From: a virus
Virus record (IMG/VR): IMGVR_UViG_3300027850_000002
Span: 111,416 to 175,415 of that record
Direction: 5' to 3' (one strand)
DNA: 64,000 bases
Shown: positions 20,964-52,239 of the stretch, piece after piece
Position numbering within the stretch: the stretch's first letter is position 1
Layout: each line of letters begins with the position of its first letter
The notes under the pieces: generated by a model
Database searches by the model: none
Seen by the model: only the letters and a program-made list of their open reading frames with translations
Told to the model about the DNA's origin: nothing
Program-made: the position numbers and the translations under genes

Positions 20964-21224
20964 TCATCGATTCTTACGTTCGTCCGATGTTAGTTCGCTG
21001 GTGAAGCCGAATAGTTGGTCCAACTCGTCCGCGAACCCTTCAAACGATTCACGCATAGCCGCATTCCTGACGCCATCCAGGTCCGACGTGTAGTGGTCGT
21101 CGTGCATCCAATACGCACGTGAACGAAACCGTTTGGCCAACGTGAACATCTGCCCAACAGTTACCGTTTGGACCGCGTCGGGCGGCTGCCACATCTGGTT
21201 GTCGTCGTTGTCGCCTGTCATCAC
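20964..21224 (-). CDS. hypothetical protein
   Basis: Operonic small ORF. Confidence 0.5.
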   Translation of the reverse strand: MMTGDNDDNQMWQPPDAVQTVTVGQMFTLAKRFRSRAYWMHDDHYTSDLDGVRNAAMRESFEGFADELDQLFGFTSELTSDERKNR

Positions 21225-21514
21225 GACACGACAGGTTCGAAATCCAACACGTCAACAAGCGTCTTGGGACGATCGCCACCAAGGAGCAGAACGGTTTGAC
21301 CGCGGTCCTTGAGCTGGTTTGCAGCCCACGCCGCAGCGTCATACGGGGTCGTAAAGCCGTTCTTCCCCAAGTGAACGACGGCACGTTCCATCTGACGGTA
21401 CTCCGGGCAGAGCGACAACGTCGCAGCCCACCTCCCGTCTTGGCCGTCGAGAAGGACTTCCCACGCGGCCCAGCGTGCGGCCCAGAGACCTGTATCGAGC
21501 TGTACCGCCTTCAC
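21221..21514 (-). CDS. hypothetical protein
   Basis: Coupled overlaps on both sides. Confidence 0.55.
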   Translation of the reverse strand: MKAVQLDTGLWAARWAAWEVLLDGQDGRWAATLSLCPEYRQMERAVVHLGKNGFTTPYDAAAWAANQLKDRGQTVLLLGGDRPKTLVDVLDFEPVVS

Positions 21515-21783
21515 GAAGCGACCTCGAAGGCGAGAGACGCGTTGTGTAGTTTGCGAGCGAGCACGATACGACGTTCGACCTGCGCGAGTTTGTCATCGTA
21601 CGCAAAGTAGTGTTTGTCGTCGGGGTAGCGGGTCTCAACGTACGACGCTGCAGGTGTACGACGTGCAGCGAACTCGCCAAGCGCGTCCACGAGCAGGTAG
21701 CGGAGGTCGGTCTGTTCTTGTTCGGTGAGTCCGTCTTCGACTGTCAGAACGATTTTGGTAATCATATTCGTTGGTCCTTTCAT
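21511..21783 (-). CDS. hypothetical protein
   Basis: Operonic small ORF. Confidence 0.55.
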   Translation of the reverse strand: MKGPTNMITKIVLTVEDGLTEQEQTDLRYLLVDALGEFAARRTPAASYVETRYPDDKHYFAYDDKLAQVERRIVLARKLHNASLAFEVAS

Positions 21784-21788
21784 GCGCG

Positions 21789-22010
21789 TCAGCGCGAACC
21801 AGTGTCTTTGGAAATTCGAATAACAAGAGGTAATTCGTTCGGCCTGCCGTCAACAGGCGTCAGGTCGTCATTTTCATCAAGTTCATCGGAAAGACGCAGG
21901 CGAACTTGAAACTCGGCGATCAATGCCGCTTTGACTGTCCGAGCAAGCATCAGTACATCCTCTGATGGTTGTTCGGGCAGGCAAAGCAAGACGCGTCGTC
22001 GACGCATCAA
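21789..22010 (-). CDS. hypothetical protein
   Basis: Operonic small ORF. Confidence 0.45.
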   Translation of the reverse strand: MMRRRRVLLCLPEQPSEDVLMLARTVKAALIAEFQVRLRLSDELDENDDLTPVDGRPNELPLVIRISKDTGSR

Positions 22011-22333
22011 TGCACCAAGTGCATGTGTTTCATCAGACCGTCACGATTGCGGTCATAGAGCACATACGTATCGTGGTCGTCAGAAGACCCGGAAACTTGG
22101 AACTCGCCTTTCTTGCGTGTGCCATCACGTAAGATCACTTCGATCTCGTAATCCACAACGGACTCGTCGTGGTCGGGGCATTGGTGCACCGTCACCGCGC
22201 GAACGTCGCGAACATCGACATCTTGCATCAGCTCCCGAACGCGGACCGGCAGTGCGAACGCCACGGGGAGTTCACACCGCAGGCCCGCTTGCAGGAGCGC
22301 GTTGCTCAGGCAGTTGAACTCGTTGTTGCTCAC
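22007..22333 (-). CDS. hypothetical protein
   Basis: Operonic small ORF. Confidence 0.5.
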   Translation of the reverse strand: MSNNEFNCLSNALLQAGLRCELPVAFALPVRVRELMQDVDVRDVRAVTVHQCPDHDESVVDYEIEVILRDGTRKKGEFQVSGSSDDHDTYVLYDRNRDGLMKHMHLVH

Positions 22334-22348
22334 AGACAGAAGTGTAGG

Positions 22349-22636
22349 TCACGCATCGTCTGGAGCCACACTACGAAAATCATCTTCAGTAACAGCCGTG
22401 TCGATCTCCTCAGTGGTCAAGAAGCCGATCTCGAGAATCAAATCTTCGGTCTGTCGCATGAGGCGGTTGACGTGTTTCATGAGCCAGAACGCGGCTTCCT
22501 TTTCTGTCTTGCCGGCTGCGTGAACGATCTTGCGTTCGTTCTCGTAGACAGTGAGATGAACCGAGCCATCCCGTACTTCTTGGGAGAGCTTCAGCTTCCG
22601 TTCGTATTGAAGAATCGTCCGCGGTTTGAGCGGCAT
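22349..22636 (-). CDS. hypothetical protein
   Basis: Operonic small ORF. Confidence 0.55.
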   Translation of the reverse strand: MPLKPRTILQYERKLKLSQEVRDGSVHLTVYENERKIVHAAGKTEKEAAFWLMKHVNRLMRQTEDLILEIGFLTTEEIDTAVTEDDFRSVAPDDA

Positions 22637-22639
22637 GAC

Positions 22640-24355
22640 TCAAACCTTCTTACCAGAGAACGCTCCCTGAAAGACCTTGGCCAACGCCACCGGCTTGCTC
22701 TCGACCTCGACAGCGCTTCCGTTCAAGGCGCGGTCGACACTGTTACGCGCGTCCATGACGATATCCTTCACGAGCCGCTTGGCTGCAGCTTTGTGACGGT
22801 CCGACTTGAGTGCGACGCCCAGCGCTTCAGCGTCATACATCCGCGTGTGGCGGTCGTAAGTCACTGTTCCAACAACGTCGCCGTTGTCGAGCAAGCCCCA
22901 CTGACGAGCGTGCTCGACGTTGTCACGCGTCCGCCACGACGACATCGCCAACCACTGCATCTCTGCAGAGTTGGCTTTTGACGCGATGTACTCCGGAGAA
23001 GCTTCGATACCCGCCGGAAGCAGCGGCACATGTACGTGCCGCGCCTTGAGCGACACGCCTGTGAACCGCAACGCGTCTTCTTCGCACTGCGCATCGAAGC
23101 ACGGCGAGCAGAGGCCGTTCGTTTCGACCGAGCCTTCCGTCGCCGACCGCATTCCCGGTTCCGTCGTGCCGCACGCGAAGCACGGTGTGTTCACCGCGAT
23201 CGCATGACCTTCGTCGGCGTCGTCGTGAACGACGACCATCGTCGGCGGAACGTCGTGCGCCGTGCCCCACAACTCCTCCGTGCCCTTTGCGCGCAGGGTG
23301 TTCCCGCGCGTCCAGGTCTCGGGATTGTTCGGGGCGTCCGCCGGCGTGATGTCGATTCCATGATCGTGCGCAACCCGAAGAACTCGGGCCTGCGCGACAC
23401 CTTCCGTGGTTCCCACACGGGATTCGCTCGTGACGATTTTTGGGACGGCCGCCTCGAACTTACCTTGTAGAGCAAGTCCGAGCGGCGAATCCGCGGGAAC
23501 CTCCCGAACGGCGGGTGCGACCACTTCGATCGACTTCGACTTGGTCGTCAACATCGTGCGCACGCGGACAGACGGCTTACGAGGAGCCACTGCACCTTCC
23601 GTCACGAGCTGCGACGACGCACCGTTCATCGCAGAACGAATCATGTCGGGAATGGTCGCGGAGGTCCAGTTCCCGATCGAACGCATCACCAACTCGGTGA
23701 TGAACACGAGCGCCAGCGGCAACGAGATTGAAGCGGCGAGCAGCGTCATCGCGCCTGCGCCCACGTAGAGCGCGACGCGAACGGCCTGAGCCACTGCTTC
23801 GAGGAAGTCCCGTGTGAACTTCGCCAGCTTCGACTTCGACTTCTCGAGCCAGCCGACGCCCTGCGCGGCTGCGAGTGCCACGAGACCTGCTGCCGCGGTC
23901 ACTGCCGATGTCGCCAACGGCGCAATCGAGAGCGAGACCAACCACGCGGCGGCGCCGAACAGAAAGCCCCAGTCCTGGAGGAAGGGGCGGAGGACCGTGC
24001 GCCACGCGTGCGCCACGCGCGCCCACGCCGCCTGACCCAACTCACGGAGCGCGACGACCGGCCGGCTGTTCGCTGCCTTGCTGTAGACCCGGACGATCCG
24101 CTTCGTGACCGGCTCGACGAGCTTGGCGACCTTGAGTGCTGCCGCCTTGGTCGAGCGCGCCACACGGAGCGCTGCCGCCTTCGTCATGCGCGCAAGCCGC
24201 TTCGCCGCTGCCTTGGCGCGGTGACCGGCTGCCGAACCCATCCGTGCGACCTTGCGGAGGGCGCGCTTGATTGAACCTTCCGAACGAACGGTGCGTGCCT
24301 TGCGAACGGTCTTACGGCTCGTGCGGGGAACTGAAACTGTTGCTGTCGTTGCCAT
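22640..24355 (-). CDS. early membrane protein: basic Lys/Arg/Ala N-terminus, ~4 TM, CxxC-CxxC zinc site
   Basis: ATG at 24355 behind hairpin+AGGAGA. Repeated TKAAAL, hydrophobic helices, CFAC...CSPC. Confidence 0.65.
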   Translation of the reverse strand: MATTATVSVPRTSRKTVRKARTVRSEGSIKRALRKVARMGSAAGHRAKAAAKRLARMTKAAALRVARSTKAAALKVAKLVEPVTKRIVRVYSKAANSRPVVALRELGQAAWARVAHAWRTVLRPFLQDWGFLFGAAAWLVSLSIAPLATSAVTAAAGLVALAAAQGVGWLEKSKSKLAKFTRDFLEAVAQAVRVALYVGAGAMTLLAASISLPLALVFITELVMRSIGNWTSATIPDMIRSAMNGASSQLVTEGAVAPRKPSVRVRTMLTTKSKSIEVVAPAVREVPADSPLGLALQGKFEAAVPKIVTSESRVGTTEGVAQARVLRVAHDHGIDITPADAPNNPETWTRGNTLRAKGTEELWGTAHDVPPTMVVVHDDADEGHAIAVNTPCFACGTTEPGMRSATEGSVETNGLCSPCFDAQCEEDALRFTGVSLKARHVHVPLLPAGIEASPEYIASKANSAEMQWLAMSSWRTRDNVEHARQWGLLDNGDVVGTVTYDRHTRMYDAEALGVALKSDRHKAAAKRLVKDIVMDARNSVDRALNGSAVEVESKPVALAKVFQGAFSGKKV

Positions 24356-24363
24356 AGTGATTC

Positions 24364-24384
24364 TCTCCTGCCCGTCTGGGCGTT
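24364..24384 (-). promoter_or_regulatory. hairpin+SD motif copy 1 (AACGCCCAGACGGGCAGGAGA)
   Basis: One of four related copies, directly upstream of a start codon. Confidence 0.7.
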
Positions 24385-24399
24385 GTTGAACAGATACCG

Positions 24400-24441
24400 A
24401 CGGGAAGGGGTTGAAGCGGAATTGCTTCAATCCTTTCCCGT
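24400..24441. repeat. 18-bp imperfect inverted repeat (long hairpin)
   Basis: ACGGGAAGGGGTTGAAGC / GCTTCAATCCTTTCCCGT with a 6-nt loop and two G-T positions. Confidence 0.75.
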
Positions 24442-24467
24442 AGGCGCGACCGCGAGGTCGCGTGGGA

Positions 24468-24800
24468 CTAGTTCGAAATGAACGGGACCACGAAGGCTTC
24501 GTCCGTCTTGTCGACGAACTCCATCTTCGACGCGTGTGCTTCTGGAGTCGGATCGTGCATCCGCGCCAAGAAGTTGCGCGCCTGGGTCTTCAGCTCGTCG
24601 GCCGTCGACGTCTCGCGAACAACCACGACGGTTGCCTTGTCGATGTCATCAGACACGACGATAACGGGCATGATCGTGAACAACACGCCACGCAACGAAC
24701 TGACGCGATACTCACTGCCCGTGAGACGTGCCAACTTCAGCGCGGCCACGATGACGTGGTCGAGCGCTGCCTTGATCTCTGCATCACACTTAGTACACAT
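24468..24800 (-). CDS. hypothetical protein
   Basis: Strong SD with hairpin motif upstream. Confidence 0.6.
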   Translation of the reverse strand: MCTKCDAEIKAALDHVIVAALKLARLTGSEYRVSSLRGVLFTIMPVIVVSDDIDKATVVVVRETSTADELKTQARNFLARMHDPTPEAHASKMEFVDKTDEAFVVPFISN

Positions 24801-24805
24801 GGAAA

Positions 24806-24828
24806 TCTCCTCACCCGTCAGGGTGGTT
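24806..24828 (-). promoter_or_regulatory. hairpin+SD motif copy 2 (AACCACCCTGACGGGTGAGGAGA)
   Basis: Compensatory A-T pair relative to the other copies. Confidence 0.7.
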
Positions 24829-25188
24829 GTTCGTTAGTACGTTCTGAATGGTTGAGCGAAGCACTGGGACGTCCGAGCCTTTGGCGACGCAGGGCACGCC
24901 GCGGTCTTGAGCAGATTCGTCCGACGTCAGGAACAAGAACCGCTTCACGAGATGTGAAACGTGAGTCTCGACCCATTCGAGAACGTCCCCACCCGTACGC
25001 GGTCCGATCAGATTCCAGTCGCAGATGATCAAGTCGAACTCGCGTTCGAGCACGCTCTCCTTGAGGTACTCGATTGCGAGGTCGGCGTTGTCTGAGACCC
25101 AGACGTCTACGTCGCCGTACTGACGACGTAGAAGCCTGGCGAGAACCCGTTGAATGTCCGCGCAATCTTCAACGAGGAGGACCTTCAC
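24811..25188 (-). CDS. single-domain response regulator (CheY-like receiver)
   Basis: VLLVED, FDLIICDWNL (phospho-Asp), GGDVL, FLFLT, VAK. Confidence 0.85.
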   Translation of the reverse strand: MKVLLVEDCADIQRVLARLLRRQYGDVDVWVSDNADLAIEYLKESVLEREFDLIICDWNLIGPRTGGDVLEWVETHVSHLVKRFLFLTSDESAQDRGVPCVAKGSDVPVLRSTIQNVLTNNHPDG

Positions 25189-25847
25189 GGCGTCACGCTC
25201 CTACCGCGACGGTAGATGTACATGTCGTCATGAATGCCGTCCCAGTTGGGAAGGTGCACTGCCTTCACCTCAGTCCAATCCCTCTCGAGCGCGTCATGGA
25301 ACGCGTAGTCGCCGGTACATCCTCCGCGACCTTCACCGATGTACGCCACCGTGTCGCCGGTGTAGTACCAAAGACACGACGACGCGAAGTCGGTGTTGTA
25401 GTTCGGCCAGCACAAGAAGAGGGCGCGGTCAGCGCGCTTCTTGAGCTTGCCTGGCAGACCGTGCACCACACCCGTCCACCGCTTGGTGAACTGGTAGTGG
25501 TTGGTTTTGCCCGGGTGCTTGTCGTACGCCTGAACGTCCACGCCACGCTTGCGCAGCAAGTACGCCCAGTATCCCGACCCGGCGCCCATCTCGATGATGG
25601 GCCCCAGAGCCGCGAGTGCGTCGATAGCCTCGTCGTTGGGAATCGCGAACGAGAACTGCTTGATCAGCTCGCCGCGGACCGTGAACGATGAGCACACTGA
25701 GCCGTAGCGCCAGGAATCACGCGTAGTGTTCTTGGTGGCCTCGAAGCGCGCGCGGTAGTCGTCCTCGGGCAGCTTCGCGAGCCGCTCGAGAAACGTTTCG
25801 TGCGCAATCTTGTACTGGGTCAAGTACTGCCCGTAGCCCAGGTTCAC
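25185..25847 (-). CDS. class I SAM-dependent methyltransferase-like protein
   Basis: IIEMGAGSGYWAYLL, LFLCWP, YIGEG.GGCT. GTG start coupled to upstream stop. Confidence 0.65.
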   Translation of the reverse strand: MNLGYGQYLTQYKIAHETFLERLAKLPEDDYRARFEATKNTTRDSWRYGSVCSSFTVRGELIKQFSFAIPNDEAIDALAALGPIIEMGAGSGYWAYLLRKRGVDVQAYDKHPGKTNHYQFTKRWTGVVHGLPGKLKKRADRALFLCWPNYNTDFASSCLWYYTGDTVAYIGEGRGGCTGDYAFHDALERDWTEVKAVHLPNWDGIHDDMYIYRRGRSVTP

Positions 25848-26467
25848 AGCGCGGCTCCGTTCGGCGCAACGAGCGCGTGCGTGGCCCAGAAGATCTGAGC
25901 CTCGCTGAGCTGCGCCTCGAGCCGTGCCCGCCTCTCCAAGCCCTCCTGCGTGCTGTCCTCGGGGAGCGCAGCGAGCTTGTTCTCGAGGTCGCCAGCCTCC
26001 ATCGACGCAGTCGGCATATCGAGCGAAGCGACGCCGTACGCCGTGTAGAGGACGCAGGCGACCGCGGTCACCTTGGTGCCCTTGCACTCCACACACTCGA
26101 CCTGGAACTTCACGCTCGGTCCACTGAGACCTGCGGTCCAAGTCCAACCCTCACCCATGCAGTAGTCGCACTTCTCCTCGTGGGGACCTGCGATGACGCG
26201 CACGAATCGCGTCGGCCGCTTGGGCTTGGCGACCAGGCGCGAGTCGCACGTACGCATGCCGCGCTTGGCATAGAACACCTCGCCCTCGTCGACCGGCGCG
26301 TCGCCTGCCGTCGGTCCGTACAGTTCGTTCGTGACCGTCCCGAGGTCTTCGGGCAGCTCGAGTGTTTCGATGAAGAACGCCGTCTTGTCAGCGTACTTCG
26401 CGAAGATGTGATCCCACTGCGCCTGAGTGAAACCGTGGTCCATATGTGATTCAGCGTGCTTCTTCAT
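25844..26467 (-). CDS. hypothetical protein with inserted CxxCxGxG zinc finger
   Basis: CDYCMGEG...CVECKGT, SD plus hairpin motif upstream. Confidence 0.65.
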   Translation of the reverse strand: MKKHAESHMDHGFTQAQWDHIFAKYADKTAFFIETLELPEDLGTVTNELYGPTAGDAPVDEGEVFYAKRGMRTCDSRLVAKPKRPTRFVRVIAGPHEEKCDYCMGEGWTWTAGLSGPSVKFQVECVECKGTKVTAVACVLYTAYGVASLDMPTASMEAGDLENKLAALPEDSTQEGLERRARLEAQLSEAQIFWATHALVAPNGAAL

Positions 26468-26472
26468 GTTGA

Positions 26473-26495
26473 TCTCCTTGCCCGTCAGGGCGGTT
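26473..26495 (-). promoter_or_regulatory. hairpin+SD motif copy 3 (AACCGCCCTGACGGGCAAGGAGA)
   Basis: 23/23 identical to copy 4. Confidence 0.75.
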
Positions 26496-26503
26496 GAATG
26501 TGT

Positions 26504-26695
26504 TTAGTAACGATACCTGGTGGTTGCTCCGATGCCGAGTCGTGCGTACCGCTCGGCCGTGGCGTAGTCACCGCGCTCGGCAGCCTTGCTCGCTTCGGCG
26601 TACCAGTACTTCGGAGAGGTCGTCTTCTCGACCGCCACAGCCATAACCGCGAGCCCGCCGCCGATTGCTTTCATCGCTTTCTTGAACTTACCCAT
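26504..26695 (-). CDS. small hypothetical protein
   Basis: 63 aa, bracketed by two identical 23-nt motifs. Confidence 0.6.
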   Translation of the reverse strand: MGKFKKAMKAIGGGLAVMAVAVEKTTSPKYWYAEASKAAERGDYATAERYARLGIGATTRYRY

Positions 26696-26703
26696 AACAT
26701 CTG

Positions 26704-26726
26704 TCTCCTTGCCCGTCAGGGCGGTT
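26704..26726 (-). promoter_or_regulatory. hairpin+SD motif copy 4
   Basis: 23/23 identical to copy 3. Confidence 0.75.
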
Positions 26727-26765
26727 TATTGAATGCCTAGTGAAAGGCATGGTTTATCGACATAG

Positions 26766-26798
26766 TCTTATACCTATTTTCGAGGTCATTTTTTAGAC
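26766..26798 (-). promoter_or_regulatory. putative promoter GTCTAAA-N17-GGTATAAG
   Basis: Heads the (-) block. Second copy at 29413-29444. Confidence 0.45.
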
Positions 26799-26913
26799 TC
26801 ATTGGGTCAAGGATAGACGGCCATCTAGACCGCCCATCGTTCAACCAATGCGTATTAACGGAGGTCTCGGATATCCATAGGCACCTCCTTTCTTTGAATG
26901 AAAGAGGGGCCTG

Positions 26914-27114
26914 CTAGGGCTTGAACACGATCTTCGATTCGCCGTTCACGCGAGCATCGGGGTCACGGACGATAGCGCCGTCCACCGTGACCTTGCCTCG
27001 CAGGATGGCTTTTCGAGCCTTGCCCTTCGACAGTTTGACGTCCTCGGAAACGACGTCGAGTAGCGCGAATGTGAACACCGTCGGGATGTTCTGGAGGGGT
27101 GGTAGGCCTTTCAC
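26914..27114 (-). CDS. stand-alone S4 RNA-binding domain protein
   Basis: LSKGKARKAILRGKVTVDGAIVRDPDARV matches the S4 consensus. AGGAG SD before GTG at 27114. Confidence 0.7.
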   Translation of the reverse strand: MKGLPPLQNIPTVFTFALLDVVSEDVKLSKGKARKAILRGKVTVDGAIVRDPDARVNGESKIVFKP

Positions 27115-27120
27115 GGAACT

Positions 27121-27129
27121 CCTATAATT
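27121..27129 (+). promoter_or_regulatory. CCTATAATT late-type promoter
   Basis: TATAAT 27123-27128, GTG at 27138. Confidence 0.6.
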
Positions 27130-27137
27130 ACAGCGAC

Positions 27138-28532
27138 GTGGAAAATTACCTGAAGATAGCTTTCCTCGACGGAGCGCAGGATGCCCTGTCACGACATGGC
27201 CTCGCTCCCAAGCGGGAGAAATCCATGCTTCGGAAGGTGCTTCCTTGGGCAGCGGCGCTTGGCGCGGGGGCAGGGGCGTACAAATTCTTACGGACGCCAT
27301 CGTTCTCCGCGAACCCGCTCCTTCGGAAGGTGCAACAGCAAGCCGCGAGCAAGGGCTTCCACCGCATCGTCGACGTCACGCCGGACGGAACCGGCGGACT
27401 GTTTCGTCCGGTGGCCAACGCCGAAGGCAAGCTGTCTCCGTGGAACAAGCTGAAGATGTTCCTCAACGAGGGTACGACCGAAGCGATTCCGATCTCGCAC
27501 GCAGGTGACGTTCCGAAAGTCGTCGGGCACAAGGGGCCGCGTCGCGTGCAGGGCGTCACCCACGGGCGGCATGACGTCTTCGGAACCTCCGACGCCGTAC
27601 GTGGCGGCATCGACATCGAGGGGCCGCAAGAGACGATGACAGCGATGAACCGCGTATCCAAGGGCGGCAAGAAGTTCGAAGCAAACCTGTTGAACAAACA
27701 CGCTCCGGGGTCGATGCCCGAGACACATACCGACCTCGGTCAACTGTTCGAAGGTCTACCTGCCGATCGCCAGCAAGCCGTTGCGGAGCTGCAGAGCCGG
27801 GTTCTTTCAAACCACGGCGAGAACGTATTGCTGAAACCGAACCAGGGCTTGGCATCCGGAGGAAAGTTCCCTCGTGCAAACCAGGACTGGAGTTCACAGC
27901 TTCAAGCATACGATGCACACATGGCAGACCCTGCCAAACGCCAAACGTGGCGAGCAGCGAAGCAAGTCGGCGGAAACGAACTGTCGAAATACATGATCGA
28001 CAACGGATTGTATGAAGGTGGCGTTCTCCATCAGGCGCTGCGCAACCCGAAGTCGGTGCTTGCACAGAAACTGATCGAGAATCCATTGGGTGAATGGCGG
28101 GCACACACGATGGCGGGCAGCGTGCCTGCGAACATGATGTTCCCGCGTTTCTCCAAAGGACCGAAGGCCATCGCGGGCGTCATCCATCGTGACAAGGCGA
28201 TGCAGAGTTTTCTCGAGGATACGGTCGCGAAGCTGCCGCCGAAGTATCAGTCGGGGAACTACGCGTTCGATGTGATGCCACACCGCCAACCGGATGGTTC
28301 CATCGGATACAAGATTCTCGAGATGAACCCAACCGAACAAGCCACGGCGACGGCGGCGGGTGGTGGATCTGGTTTCTTGGATCCGTCCACCGTACCGTTC
28401 ACCGGACACTCGCATTACCGCGCTGCGACGGGCCGCCACACGCCGTTGGTGGCGGGCTTGGGCGGCGTCGGCGCCGCGAGTCTCGCAGGTCTCGGCACGC
28501 GCGCGCTCACTCGTGACGAGGACGAACAATAA
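27138..28532 (+). CDS. tagged, TM-flanked ATP-grasp (RimK-like) ligase
   Basis: AFLDGAQDALSRHGL tag. VLLKPNQGLASGG, LAQKLI, EWRAH, YAFDV, ILEMNP ATP-grasp motifs. Gly/Ala TM near each end. Confidence 0.7.
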   Translation: MENYLKIAFLDGAQDALSRHGLAPKREKSMLRKVLPWAAALGAGAGAYKFLRTPSFSANPLLRKVQQQAASKGFHRIVDVTPDGTGGLFRPVANAEGKLSPWNKLKMFLNEGTTEAIPISHAGDVPKVVGHKGPRRVQGVTHGRHDVFGTSDAVRGGIDIEGPQETMTAMNRVSKGGKKFEANLLNKHAPGSMPETHTDLGQLFEGLPADRQQAVAELQSRVLSNHGENVLLKPNQGLASGGKFPRANQDWSSQLQAYDAHMADPAKRQTWRAAKQVGGNELSKYMIDNGLYEGGVLHQALRNPKSVLAQKLIENPLGEWRAHTMAGSVPANMMFPRFSKGPKAIAGVIHRDKAMQSFLEDTVAKLPPKYQSGNYAFDVMPHRQPDGSIGYKILEMNPTEQATATAAGGGSGFLDPSTVPFTGHSHYRAATGRHTPLVAGLGGVGAASLAGLGTRALTRDEDEQ

Positions 28533-29366: not shown

Positions 29367-29412
29367 AGAGAGCCTTTGGTTGAATGTGTATTCCGCATAC
29401 CTGTAGACACAT

Positions 29413-29444
29413 CCTTATGCCCAAATCGTAGGGCCGATTTAGAC
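29413..29444 (-). promoter_or_regulatory. putative promoter GTCTAAA-N16-GGCATAAG
   Basis: Matches the motif at 26766-26798. Upstream of the lipoprotein gene. Confidence 0.45.
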
Positions 29445-29598
29445 CGCCCCTTGACAGGGTCCAACCGACGAGGCTGCCAGCGTGCGGGTGTGGGTGTTGT
29501 GACGTCCAACCGCGGCCCGGCAGGACCGGACCCCGCTGCCCGCCCTCAAACCATCGCCAACGAGTTGCGTGCGTGTCCTCCCAACTAAGGAGGATCGA

Positions 29599-35774: not shown

Positions 35775-38700
35775 CAGCCACCTCCACGCAGAATGTTCGA
35801 ACCCACCAAGACGCCGCCGCCGCCACTGCCGCCAGCAATGATCTCGAGCGGATCTTGCGCCAGGAGAAGCGGATCGACTTCAACCTCGACTTGACTCGGC
35901 AACACGATGATCGAGCCGGTCACCGCTTGAATGGGCACGCCAATCGAACTACGCGAACCGTCAGCCACTGTACGGAACTCGGTGTTGCCGCTGTACGGTC
36001 CTTGCGGGTCGACGCTGTTGAGCGGGACGCTGCCGTTCCAAGGTACAGCGAATGCGTGACGCGACTGATCGGTTTGATACAAGTTGTTCGTCTTGAACAC
36101 GACCTTGTGCATCATGTAGTCGCGGGCAGTGCTCACCGTGATCGAAGTGCCGCCGTAGCCGTACGCTCGATCCGGCAAGTGCAAGAAGGACGATTCGCCC
36201 TTGATGCCACGACCCGCAGGCGCACCGCCGGTCTGTAACCACACCCACGGCCACAACCGCAGGTGGTTGCCTCCGACAGCAGGGTCACACCCAAAGAGTC
36301 CTCCGCCACCGCTACCACCACCCGCGATGGTGCCGTAGAGCGTCTCGTAGGTCGGAGAGCCGACGTTCGTCCAAAGCGCGTTCTCAGCAGTGAACGCCTC
36401 GCCGTAAAAAAACGCTGCGAAGGGTTGTGCGAACGGCGGGTAGTTGCTGTTTCCGCTGGAGTTGAATGCGCCCTGCATCCCGGAGAAGCCTTGTCCAGGC
36501 GAACTCCGCTGAGACACGTAGACAACGTACGGATCAGGGTCGGACGGGTCTGCGTTCTTGATCGGGTCATAGAACATGAACCCGGACGCTGAGCCGTTGA
36601 ACTTGCCGGTGTACCAGTGGTGTCCTGCGTGAACGAAGTGCGCACGACTTCGTGAGACGTCGTACGCGGTCGCGGCATATCCGTCGGAGCCTCCGGTGTA
36701 TGGCAACGCCTGGCCTTGGTTGTTGCCAGTCGGCGCCTCGAAGAAGTCCGTCTCCTGTTGCCAACCAAACACGGTGTCGACACGGTCCCAGAAGTATCCA
36801 GGTCCAGGGATGAAGCCTGAGTAGTTGCGCCCGCCTGCCATCGCGAGAACACCGCGCGCGTTGTCAAACCACATCGACCCGCCGACGCGCGGCAGGCTTG
36901 CCGGCAGAAACGTTTGCAGGACCCAATTTCCGCCGACCCATTTCCACGTATCGGTAGGAAAGATGCTGCCGTTGTACCCGCCGTACAGCCACACATTCGT
37001 TCCATCGCCACACATCGCCACCGACTCGCGCGTCCCTGGATTGTTCGCGGGTGCGAGCAAAGTCCAGTTTGATCCGTTCCACGAGTACGTCGAGGACTGG
37101 AGTGTCGGAGAACCGTCGTAGCCTCCGTACAAGATGACGCGGTCGCCGGCGCCATCCCATGCCATCGCGTGAAGAAACCGTGTCGCGGGTGTCGTCACGG
37201 GAACGGCGTTCGTCCACGTCACGCCGTTGTACATCCACGTGTCCGAGAGTGCGCTGTTGTTGCGATCACGACCGCCGAAGAGCACGACACGGCTGTTGGC
37301 CACGTCGTATGCCATCGAATGGTGGTACCGCGCTGACGGAGACGTTGTAGGAAAGATGCGTGTCCACTTCGTGCCGTCGAATTCCCATGTTCGATCGGTC
37401 GCGCCGTTTGGTGGCGTAACCGTGTCGTTGTATCCACCGAACCAGACGAGCACCTGTCGAACAGGGTCATAAACCATCTGTGAGCCGTGCCCAGCAGACG
37501 GAATGGCGCGGACAACACTCCACTGCGTACCGTTCCACAACCAGGTTTGGTTGCTGGTCTGGTTGCTGAACCCCCACGGAGCGTAGTCGTTTCCCGATGG
37601 AAACCCGGAATGCACAACCATACGTGCTCGATCAGAATCGAAACACGTAGCTGCACTGGCACGCCGACTCGGGGCACGTTCGTCCGGAAGCGAAAACGGT
37701 GTCGACGGTGATGCGACGGCCAGTGTCCAGTTCGTGCCGTTCCATGTGTATGTAGCACCGTCGTAGATGCCGCCAGCGAGCAACCCGCCCAACATCACAA
37801 TCTTACCGTTGGTCGTGTCTGTCACCATCGCTTGCGTCGAGCGTGCTGGTGGTATGGTGCCCGGAGCAAGCAACGTCCACGTATTGGTCGCTGTATTGAA
37901 CTCGTACGTCTGGCTGTTCGGGACTCCGCCGTTCTCGCCGCCGAACATGATGATGCGTCCGTTGGACGGGCTGATGCCCATGCCAGCGCCCGCGCATGCG
38001 GTCGGTGTTCCAACGGTTACGAGCAACGACCAATCCGTGCCGTCCCACTTCCAGGTGTCGTTCAGATACGTGCCACCCTGATCCTTGCCGCCGAACATGA
38101 TGATCGCATCCGCCGCGGGCGACCACACCATGGATTGTTGCTGGCGTGCGGGCGGTGTCGTAGTGACTGTAGTCGATGGGTGCCAACGCACGCCGTTCCA
38201 GATCATGGTCGTGGGCGTGGTTTCGATGTTGAAGTTGTCGATGAGGCCACCGAACAACACAACCTCTTGACGAGTCTCGTCGTACGCCATCGCGCCATTG
38301 CGACGAGGCCGCGGAGATCCGTTCCACGAGACCGTCGCAGCTTTCCAATCCGTGCCGTCCCACAGCCATGTTTGGATGTCGACGAAGTTGCCGCCAAACA
38401 AAACGCCTCGCTGACGAGCCTTGTCGTAGGCCATCATCGCGCCATCAGCAGCCGGCGGTGAATGTGCCAGTGAGTCAGGGTTACTGTCCCCACTGGTATC
38501 GAGCACGACCCAATCGTCGACGGCCAGCCCGCCTGCAACGAACCACCCGTCAAGATTGTAGCCGTACCCGCCTGCCCACCATCCATAGGGCGCAGCGTTG
38601 TCAGCGCTGATCGTGAACGTCTGATCCCCGTCTGGGTAGAGCGGGACGACGGCGAACGTCGGTGCTGCATCTGTTCCGCCACCGACAATGATGTGCTCAT

Positions 38701-52011: not shown

Positions 52012-52239
52012 TTACGTCATGGAGATGTTTGTTTGACAGACCTCTCTTGCTTTCCCTGTCTCAAAGCGCAGACTCCCCTTGTGTTGGTTGCGTTCATCCA
52101 GGCGAACCGCACCATCCTCATTGAGCGTGCGCAAGAACGCCTCATTGAGCGTGCGCAAGAACGCCTCATTGAGCGTGCGCAACGCGCCCCACATGCCGTA
52201 GGTGTTTGCGATGCGGGTGTAGCGCTTCGTCGGTTTCAC
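52012..52239 (-). CDS. hypothetical protein with LRTLNEAF repeat
   Basis: In-frame tandem repeat. Confidence 0.4.
   Translation of the reverse strand: MKPTKRYTRIANTYGMWGALRTLNEAFLRTLNEAFLRTLNEDGAVRLDERNQHKGSLRFETGKAREVCQTNISMT
52116..52182. repeat. 24-bp perfect tandem repeat, ~2.8 copies
   Basis: Unit cctcattgagcgtgcgcaagaacg at 52116 and 52140, partial at 52164. Confidence 0.9.

Follow-up and report, generated by a model that had tools for sequence, protein, structure and literature searches.

A short RNA hairpin fused to the Shine–Dalgarno (SD) sequence holds a fixed place in one variable operon of a clade of large uncultured phages, at most of the cistrons whose translation starts independently, and this hairpin is real and under selection. 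It was studied in a 64,000-nucleotide (nt) stretch of viral DNA, hereafter the window (IMG/VR record IMGVR_UViG_3300027850_000002, positions 111,416 to 175,415), which forms the last 64 kb of a virus record of 175,415 bp with a G+C content of 59%. A first-pass annotation of this DNA had described four copies of a boxB-like hairpin with a single compensatory stem change, and had proposed a cis-acting RNA element for antitermination, processing, or translational control or, alternatively, a set of joints for the shuffling of gene cassettes. Comparison with related phages establishes the hairpin as an RNA structure of the sense strand, with covariation far beyond that single change and with replacement of stems at orthologous starts.

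Copies in the window

All four copies (E1 to E4; Table 1) were confirmed on the minus strand, each before an ATG, with the 23-mers of E1 and E2 identical. Their GGAGA lies 8, 5, 5, and 8 nt, respectively, from the ATG of open reading frames (ORFs) of 63, 207, 110, and 571 codons. The compensatory change in E3 is real, and its stem is lengthened to 5 base pairs (bp), namely CACCC/GGGTG; this hairpin overlaps the TGA stop codon (24811–24813) of the preceding receiver-domain gene, such that the T and G of the GGGTG arm belong to that stop. A fifth copy, E5, had been missed by the first-pass annotation, and was found in a hairpin scan and confirmed with a covariance model.

The core CCCWGACGGG was counted five times in the window, with 0.31 occurrences expected and five reached in none of 100 shuffles, and an 18-mer of core plus SD occurs three times at up to three mismatches (0.04 expected). 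The fifth CCCWGACGGG match, at 38627, is unrelated and lies within a coding region. The covariance model found no copies outside the operon over the whole 175-kb genome and a 157-kb relative, and an Rfam scan of 21000–27500 at E values up to 1 returned only two chance-level microRNA matches (E 0.5–0.9).

The module in related phages

Relatives were found through homologues of the methyltransferase-like protein and the 571-amino-acid (571-aa) protein of the operon, and their contigs are syntenic. They are L001 (also G001; 157 kb, IMG/VR), L125 (187 kb, ENA), L127, L128, L146, L147, L148, and L149, the last two of which span the operon only in part. All eight of these uncultured-phage contigs have the module at gene starts of the same operon, with three to eight copies per operon. 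Over eight genomes, the instances at starts number 33 and their different stems about 15, three automatic picks having been corrected by eye.

From 5′ to 3′, the module consists of an AAC-rich tract, a stem of 3–7 bp, a loop, AAGGAG, and the start codon. The consensus of 20 aligned copies is AACCGCCCTGACGGGCAAGGAG, that is, AAnAACC-GCCC-UGAC-GGGC-AAGGAG. The loop is mostly UGAC, closed by C-G or C·C, with UGAC present in about 27 of the 33 instances when C-UGAC-C hexaloop forms are included. The SD begins 0–3 nt past the stem, the 3′ end of which lies 10–19 nt before the start codon throughout the 33 instances.

Five loci were mapped for the placement of the module. From the S4-domain gene to the small gene after the 571-aa gene, it precedes most starts with a gap of at least 10 nt, and it is absent at every start that overlaps or touches the preceding gene; the start of the 84-aa family has it in three of the four loci holding that family. 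The module, that is, marks most operon cistrons lacking translational coupling to the previous gene. Within one gene family, its presence differs by genome, following the neighboring gene: the methyltransferase-like gene has a module in L127 and L128 only, and the 72-aa family has one in L146 and L147 and none in L125.

Searches beyond these contigs yielded little. The exact 18-mer in IMG/VR gave, apart from the relative L001, one SD-like match, in an unrelated contig of 69% GC; two further exact matches have no start codon after the motif and are apparently coding. A looser 15-nt pattern gave more than 118 matches, which is the chance level; the few look-alikes that stand before starts in unrelated phages are single, with no further copies near any of them. 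More distant homologues of the methyltransferase-like protein, with no more than 51% identity, were found in other phage contexts, where the element is absent. A genome-wide scan for any hairpin abutting an SD was swamped by false starts and was uninformative.

Evidence for a selected RNA hairpin

The pairing was evaluated in a test blind to it, which drew on five genomes and took every TGAC that precedes a start by 14–41 nt, 39 sequences in all. Paired cells amounted to 58%, as against 39 ± 2.3% in shuffles, and the covariation score was 0.344, as against 0.124 in shuffles; none of 500 shuffles equaled this score, and shifted registers gave 0.08–0.20. A flanking stem of at least 3 bp was found at 55% of the upstream TGACs and at 9.5% of other TGACs in the same loci (Fisher 4e-11, a value that overstates the evidence because the copies are not independent). 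When 26 copies were aligned to the model, each of the five pairs was found to have changed on both sides.

Comparison of orthologous starts showed that entire stems have been exchanged. Starts of the 571-aa family carry the stems GCCC (AGAC loop), GCCC, GGCC (CUGACC loop), GAGGUC (GGAA loop), GGUCC, AGUCC, and GGUCC (UGAAC loop), and those of the 84-aa family carry GCGC/GCGC, GCCC/GGGC, CCACC-UGCC-GGUGG, CCGCC/GGCGG, and CCGUC/GACGG, the last two representing a clean double substitution between flanks that are otherwise nearly identical. Orthologs of E3 have UGCCC/GGGCA, CCC/GGG, and GUUCC/GGGAC. At two sites, UGAC is replaced by GGAA, a GNRA loop. The first-pass annotation had named as refuting an absence of further covariation or conservation in homologous loci, coupled with no effect of stem disruption; further covariation and conservation were both found.

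With regard to the strand, all model matches with E below 0.1 lie on the gene strand, and G·U pairs are present in four or more stems, where an antisense RNA would have an A·C mismatch. Both observations point to a structure formed by the sense RNA. The SD was mostly unpaired in predicted folds.

Two readings that do without an RNA function have to be weighed against these data. The sequence is an inverted repeat and could be a DNA-level element, whether part of a promoter, a DNA hairpin promoter like those of N4, or an operator whose inverted repeat is bound by a dimeric regulator. A palindrome would remain symmetrical if both of its sides changed, as they did in E3, and L128 has two TGAC motifs 19–22 nt apart. 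However, a conserved DNA half-site is ruled out because whole stems turn over while position is kept, and the G·U pairs also count against such an element. Moreover, the loop is asymmetric and always oriented with the gene, the TGAC-to-TGAC spacing varies by 4 nt, and a transcription start past the hairpin would put the conserved AAGGAG at or before the 5′ end. A DNA-level role is thus very unlikely. The other reading, a functionless scar or hitch-hiking homology left by cassette insertion beside an ordinary SD, is highly improbable. Most copies are indeed near-identical within and between genomes, as if recently copied, and orphan genes stand behind many of them, but a neutral scar would not hold its pairing through complete stem turnover, nor would its distance to the start codon be kept at orthologous sites in eight genomes whose proteins have diverged to 27–70% identity.

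Gene-cassette pattern

The genes that follow the copies change more than the copies themselves. Between the window and L001 the modules (19–23 nt) are about 96% identical and the genes behind them differ: the 63-codon gene and its L001 counterpart g80 do not align, the 207-codon gene and g204 align only over about 58 C-terminal residues (28% identity, E 0.001), and the DNA of the 571-aa gene is alignable in the C-terminal half only. In the 207-aa family, the window and L128 are homologous from the module onward, with no homology upstream of it. Across the window, L001, L125, and L128, genes between conserved copies are unrelated or partly related. Genes lacking a homologue in the other loci make up 7 of the 21 that follow a module in five genomes and about 3 of the 22 that do not, a trend that is not significant. 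This comparison lends support to the alternative of cassette-shuffling joints raised in the first-pass annotation, in that relatives often have unrelated genes between the conserved copies, and it suggests that recombination has taken place at the copies.

Operon and neighboring features

The operon (Table 1) is plausibly early, judging by its gene content, and its transcript is proposed to be polycistronic, with the modules within it. The 220-codon methyltransferase-like gene matches phrog_19090 (E 7.5e-41). The receiver-domain gene encodes a stand-alone CheY-like domain, is translationally coupled to the methyltransferase-like gene, and is kept in L127, L146, and L147. Proteins of the 571-aa family begin with K/A-rich repeats (AKPFKAAAKK-like); hydrophobic segments come next, and the C-terminal domain is Cys-rich and conserved. 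The family has no match in Pfam or PHROG; L128 has three tandem paralogues or fragments of this family, with one hairpin before each. A blastn comparison of the 7-kb region with 50,697 GenBank phages gave no match.

Table 1. Coordinates of the hairpin copies and of features in and around the operon (positions in the window unless a contig is named).
Feature	Position	Strand	Description
Copy E1	26704–26726	−	AACC + hairpin GCCC-UGAC-GGGC (26711–26722) + AAGGAGA; covariance model 36.2 bits; before 63-codon gene, ATG at 26695
Copy E2	26473–26495	−	23-mer identical to E1; hairpin 26480–26491; 37.1 bits; before 207-codon gene, ATG at 26467; L128 ortholog has same module
Copy E3	24806–24828	−	Hairpin CACCC-UGAC-GGGUG (24812–24825); 34.5 bits; before 110-codon gene, ATG at 24800
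Copy E4	24364–24384	−	Hairpin GCCC-AGAC-GGGC (24370–24381) + AGGAGA; 31.2 bits; before 571-codon gene, ATG at 24355; six or seven different stems among orthologs
Copy E5	21766–21795	−	Hairpin GCGC-UGAC-GCGC (21784–21795) + AAAGGA; 28.5 bits, E 1e-6; before 84-codon gene, ATG at 21765
Module-bearing operon	21511–26695	−	Gene order g63, g207, methyltransferase-like g220, receiver-domain g125, g110, g571, small genes to g84 (numbers are codons)
S4-domain gene	26914–27117	−	Pfam S4, E 5e-6; directly upstream of operon
Receiver-domain gene	24811–25188	−	125 codons; Response_reg, E 3e-7
571-aa protein gene	22640–24355	−	Small genes come after it on the minus strand
Promoter-like motif	26760–26800	−	GAGTCTAAAA-N19-GGTATAAGACTATGT; consensus match; kept in relatives
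Further promoter-like motif site	29407–29447	−	
Promoter-like motif site, L001	2846–2905		
Promoter-like motif site, L125	4397–4455		
Promoter-like motif sites, L127	3705–3763, 4884–4942		
Promoter-like motif sites, L128	2036–2094, 3508–3566, 5642–5700		
Leader hairpin	26733–26750	−	AUGCCU-uucacu-AGGCAU; between promoter-like motif and E1
Two strong hairpins	24400–24467	−	No U-tract; between g110 and E4
tRNA genes, L125	5694–5766, 6182–6254		Within or beside hairpin operon
tRNA genes, L128	3442–3514, 6718–6792		Within or beside hairpin operon
tRNA gene, L127	2317–2391	−	Within or beside hairpin operon

The S4-domain gene adjoins the operon upstream in seven genomes, as judged by synteny, and in the window a minus-strand spacer of 218 nt separates it from the 63-codon gene. 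Its AF2 model has a canonical RNA-binding S4 fold, and Foldseek matches were to S4 domains; no sequence match was found in the PDB, and PHROGs and NCBIfam added nothing past the S4 domain. The ORF is open to 27300, and in that long form (26914–27300, minus strand) it overlaps the start of a plus-strand ATP-grasp-like gene (27099–28532). In the alignment of relatives, however, only a core of about 60 residues, the last ~60 codons, is conserved, and the real gene is therefore probably short, with its start near 27100.

The operon and a few others in the clade are headed by a motif of the form (G)GTCTAAA, 17–19 nt, and then GGCATAAGAnTGTGT, which looks like a promoter on sequence grounds; it fits sigma-70 poorly and is distinct from the CCTATAATT motif. 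Between this motif and the S4-domain gene there is a mini-ORF of seven codons (MDIRDLR; 26855–26878, minus strand), the SD of which (AAAGGAGGTG) is very strong; it could be a chance occurrence or a leader peptide. At the place of the leader hairpin, relatives have a second hairpin with an unrelated stem and the loop (C)UGAC(C/G). The recurrent leader words ACATTCAACC and GCATAAAC were not above chance in the window.

UGAC-loop hairpins in the relatives also stand after tRNA 3′ ends in the operon and after some stop codons; the tRNA-Thr of L128 and the tRNA-Val of L125 each have one within about 10 nt downstream. The tRNA of L127 has a CUA anticodon, of the amber-suppressor type according to ARAGORN. 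The window itself has no tRNA. The two strong hairpins at 24400–24467 are possibly a processing or 3′-stabilizing site; in L125, a syntenic relative in which the two flanking genes are present, the gap there is just 27 nt. Antisense or kissing partners, that is, CGUCAG-type loops elsewhere in the genome, gave many matches that were not inspected one by one, and no candidate stood out. A k-mer survey also brought up short tandem repeats that look in-frame: 48-nt periodic units at genome positions 100738–101040, which is before the window, and 24-nt units at window positions 52117–52169.

Comparison with known systems

Start-associated sequences (SAS/ESAS) were described in cluster K mycobacteriophages (Pope et al., 2011; PMC3203893) and are unexplained as of 2025 (PMC12699233). 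The module resembles them in being an oriented repeat that holds the SD core a few nt before starts, mostly ATG, in preceding different gene families, and in being confined to non-structural genes. Its position also agrees with theirs: SAS lie 3–8 nt before starts, and the GGAGA of the module lies 5–8 nt before the ATG, always on the gene strand. However, the 13-nt linear consensus of SAS, GGGATAGGAGCCC, is not matched by the module consensus, and the module has a covarying hairpin 5′ of the SD, whereas RNA pairing in the ESAS repeats was found by the SAS authors to be unsupported (PMC3203893). Further differences concern sequence, phage group, and copy range, which for the module is three to eight copies in one operon.

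A second likeness is to the promoter-early stem-loop (PeSL) cassettes of T4-type phages (Arbiol et al., 2010, PMC2839356; Comeau et al., 2014, PMC4122927). These, too, are small repeated stem-loop cassettes; they sit in a hyperplastic region, where the genes on either side are orphans or non-essential, and they bound gene replacements between relatives, which are seen here from gene content. A PeSL nevertheless combines a sigma-70-type promoter with a terminating stem-loop, whereas the module has no promoter per copy and its hairpin is fused to the SD. A scan of 22000–28000 found no sigma-70-type site, the single promoter-like motif at the operon head being of a different kind, and the module stem, of 4–6 bp, is followed by AAGGAG with no U-run, unlike the PeSL terminator. 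The module thus belongs to neither SAS nor PeSL by their defining features, and the motif itself—a covarying UNAC-capped hairpin fused to the SD—is new.

In phage 21, the boxB loop is a C-UAAC-C hexaloop that takes a UMAC/GNRA-like fold, is flanked by a C·C pair, and serves as the target of the N peptide (PMC12550061). By sequence, the module is similar in its short GC stem and its UNAC-type loop flanked by C-G or C·C, with GNRA substitutes at some sites; it differs in having no accompanying boxA or N protein and in occurring in many copies, at ribosome-binding sites. The boxB comparison drawn in the first-pass annotation has some basis in the loop sequence and lapses as regards the rest of the antitermination apparatus, as neither a boxA nor an N-like protein was found.

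That antitermination was the function, with each hairpin a lambda-type nut site that loads an antiterminator onto RNA polymerase, is accordingly hardly probable at all. This proposal draws on the resemblance of GCCCUGA...GGGC to lambda boxB as quoted in the first-pass annotation and on that of the UNAC loop to phage 21 boxB. In the 20 aligned copies, however, no boxA (CGCUCUUUA-like) was found and the 5′ flank is AAC-rich (AAnAACC); the copies number up to eight per operon, each tied to an SD and a start codon rather than forming one site after a promoter. Among the operon products there is no N-like protein, and the 571-aa family has K/A-rich AKPFK repeats at its start instead. Furthermore, no terminator-like hairpin with a U-run lies between cistrons on the gene strand, the four minus-strand matches of a terminator scan all being inside coding sequence.

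Proposed function

The explanation favored here, tentatively and with slightly less than even confidence, is that the module is a cis-acting cassette for translation initiation and mRNA stability that also serves as a recombination joint. The fixed position relative to the SD and the start codon fits the translational control or effect on mRNA fate that the first-pass annotation had among its proposals. In this mechanism, a UNAC/GNRA-type tetraloop, mostly C-UGAC-G, would cap a short GC-rich stem between an AAC-rich 5′ tract, presumed unstructured, and a strong SD downstream. The hairpin would act in cis to hold the adjacent SD single-stranded regardless of the upstream sequence. Once transcription has started, a tRNA has been excised, or an endonuclease has cut, it may also cap the mRNA segment that follows at its 5′ end. 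Because it would insulate and cap in this way, any gene placed behind a copy would be expressed predictably, and because the copies are near-identical, they would be exchange points for genes between phages, as at the PeSLs of T4.

Several observations weigh against this explanation. Fold energies of 51-nt windows are ordinary (z of −0.1 to −1.0), and a hairpin of 4 bp is weak. The insulating and stabilizing effect is proposed from sequence, and exchange exactly at the copies from gene content. In addition, about 27 of the 33 instances retain the same loop and closing pair (C-UGAC-G/C) while the stems change, for which a purely structural role is insufficient by itself; this retention would also fit recognition by a factor.

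Such recognition is the substance of the main rival, in which an RNA-binding protein of phage or host, acting in trans, reads the C-UGAC-G/C tip and uses the hairpins as its operators. Binding beside the SD would switch all independently initiated genes of the operon together, either by RegA-like shut-off or by activation, with the S4 protein as a candidate. The conserved loop and closing pair atop about 15 different stems argue for this view, as do the "first" hairpins of the leaders, which have unrelated stems and the same (C)UGAC(C/G) loop. A single base separates the CUGACC loop from CUAACC, the hexaloop to which the N peptide binds in phage 21 boxB (PMC12550061), and the replacement of UGAC by the GNRA loop GGAA at two sites is expected if it is the fold that is read. 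The S4-domain gene, with its predicted canonical RNA-binding fold, lies directly upstream in seven genomes.

On the other hand, the link to the S4 protein is one of synteny, an N-like arginine-rich peptide was not seen, and orthologous sites accept AGAC, UGCC, UGAAC, and GGAA as loop variants. Intercistronic C(UUCG)G hairpins of T4, which Tuerk and colleagues are said to have described in 1988, reportedly show a tetraloop and closing pair recurring on variable stems; if so, a conserved tetraloop on variable stems can come from stability alone. Those hairpins differ from the module in loop class and are not known to keep a set distance to an SD and start codon. Altogether, the operator view is possible though rather unlikely. 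Its most specific form, a regulon of phage 21-type UNAC boxB-like operators at ribosome-binding sites through which one small RNA-binding protein—the S4 protein being the first candidate—switches the translation of a swappable set of early genes, is to be regarded as unlikely.

Implications

Start-associated repeats in phage early regions have been on record since 2011 and are still unexplained. The module described here is a new RNA motif, absent from Rfam, and is unusually tractable: it offers a 12-nt hairpin with clear covariation, a fixed ribosome-binding-site position, and an adjoining candidate RNA-binding gene, and its loop belongs to a class known as a phage-peptide target. If it is a cis-acting insulator or stabilizer, it would be a "standard part" of natural origin with which phages can plug in new genes. 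An operator, by contrast, would define a new post-transcriptional regulon, and should that regulon prove to be one of UNAC operators, boxB-style recognition would be serving global translational control rather than antitermination. Under either reading, the module is a sequence marker of gene-exchange points in this clade of large uncultured phages.

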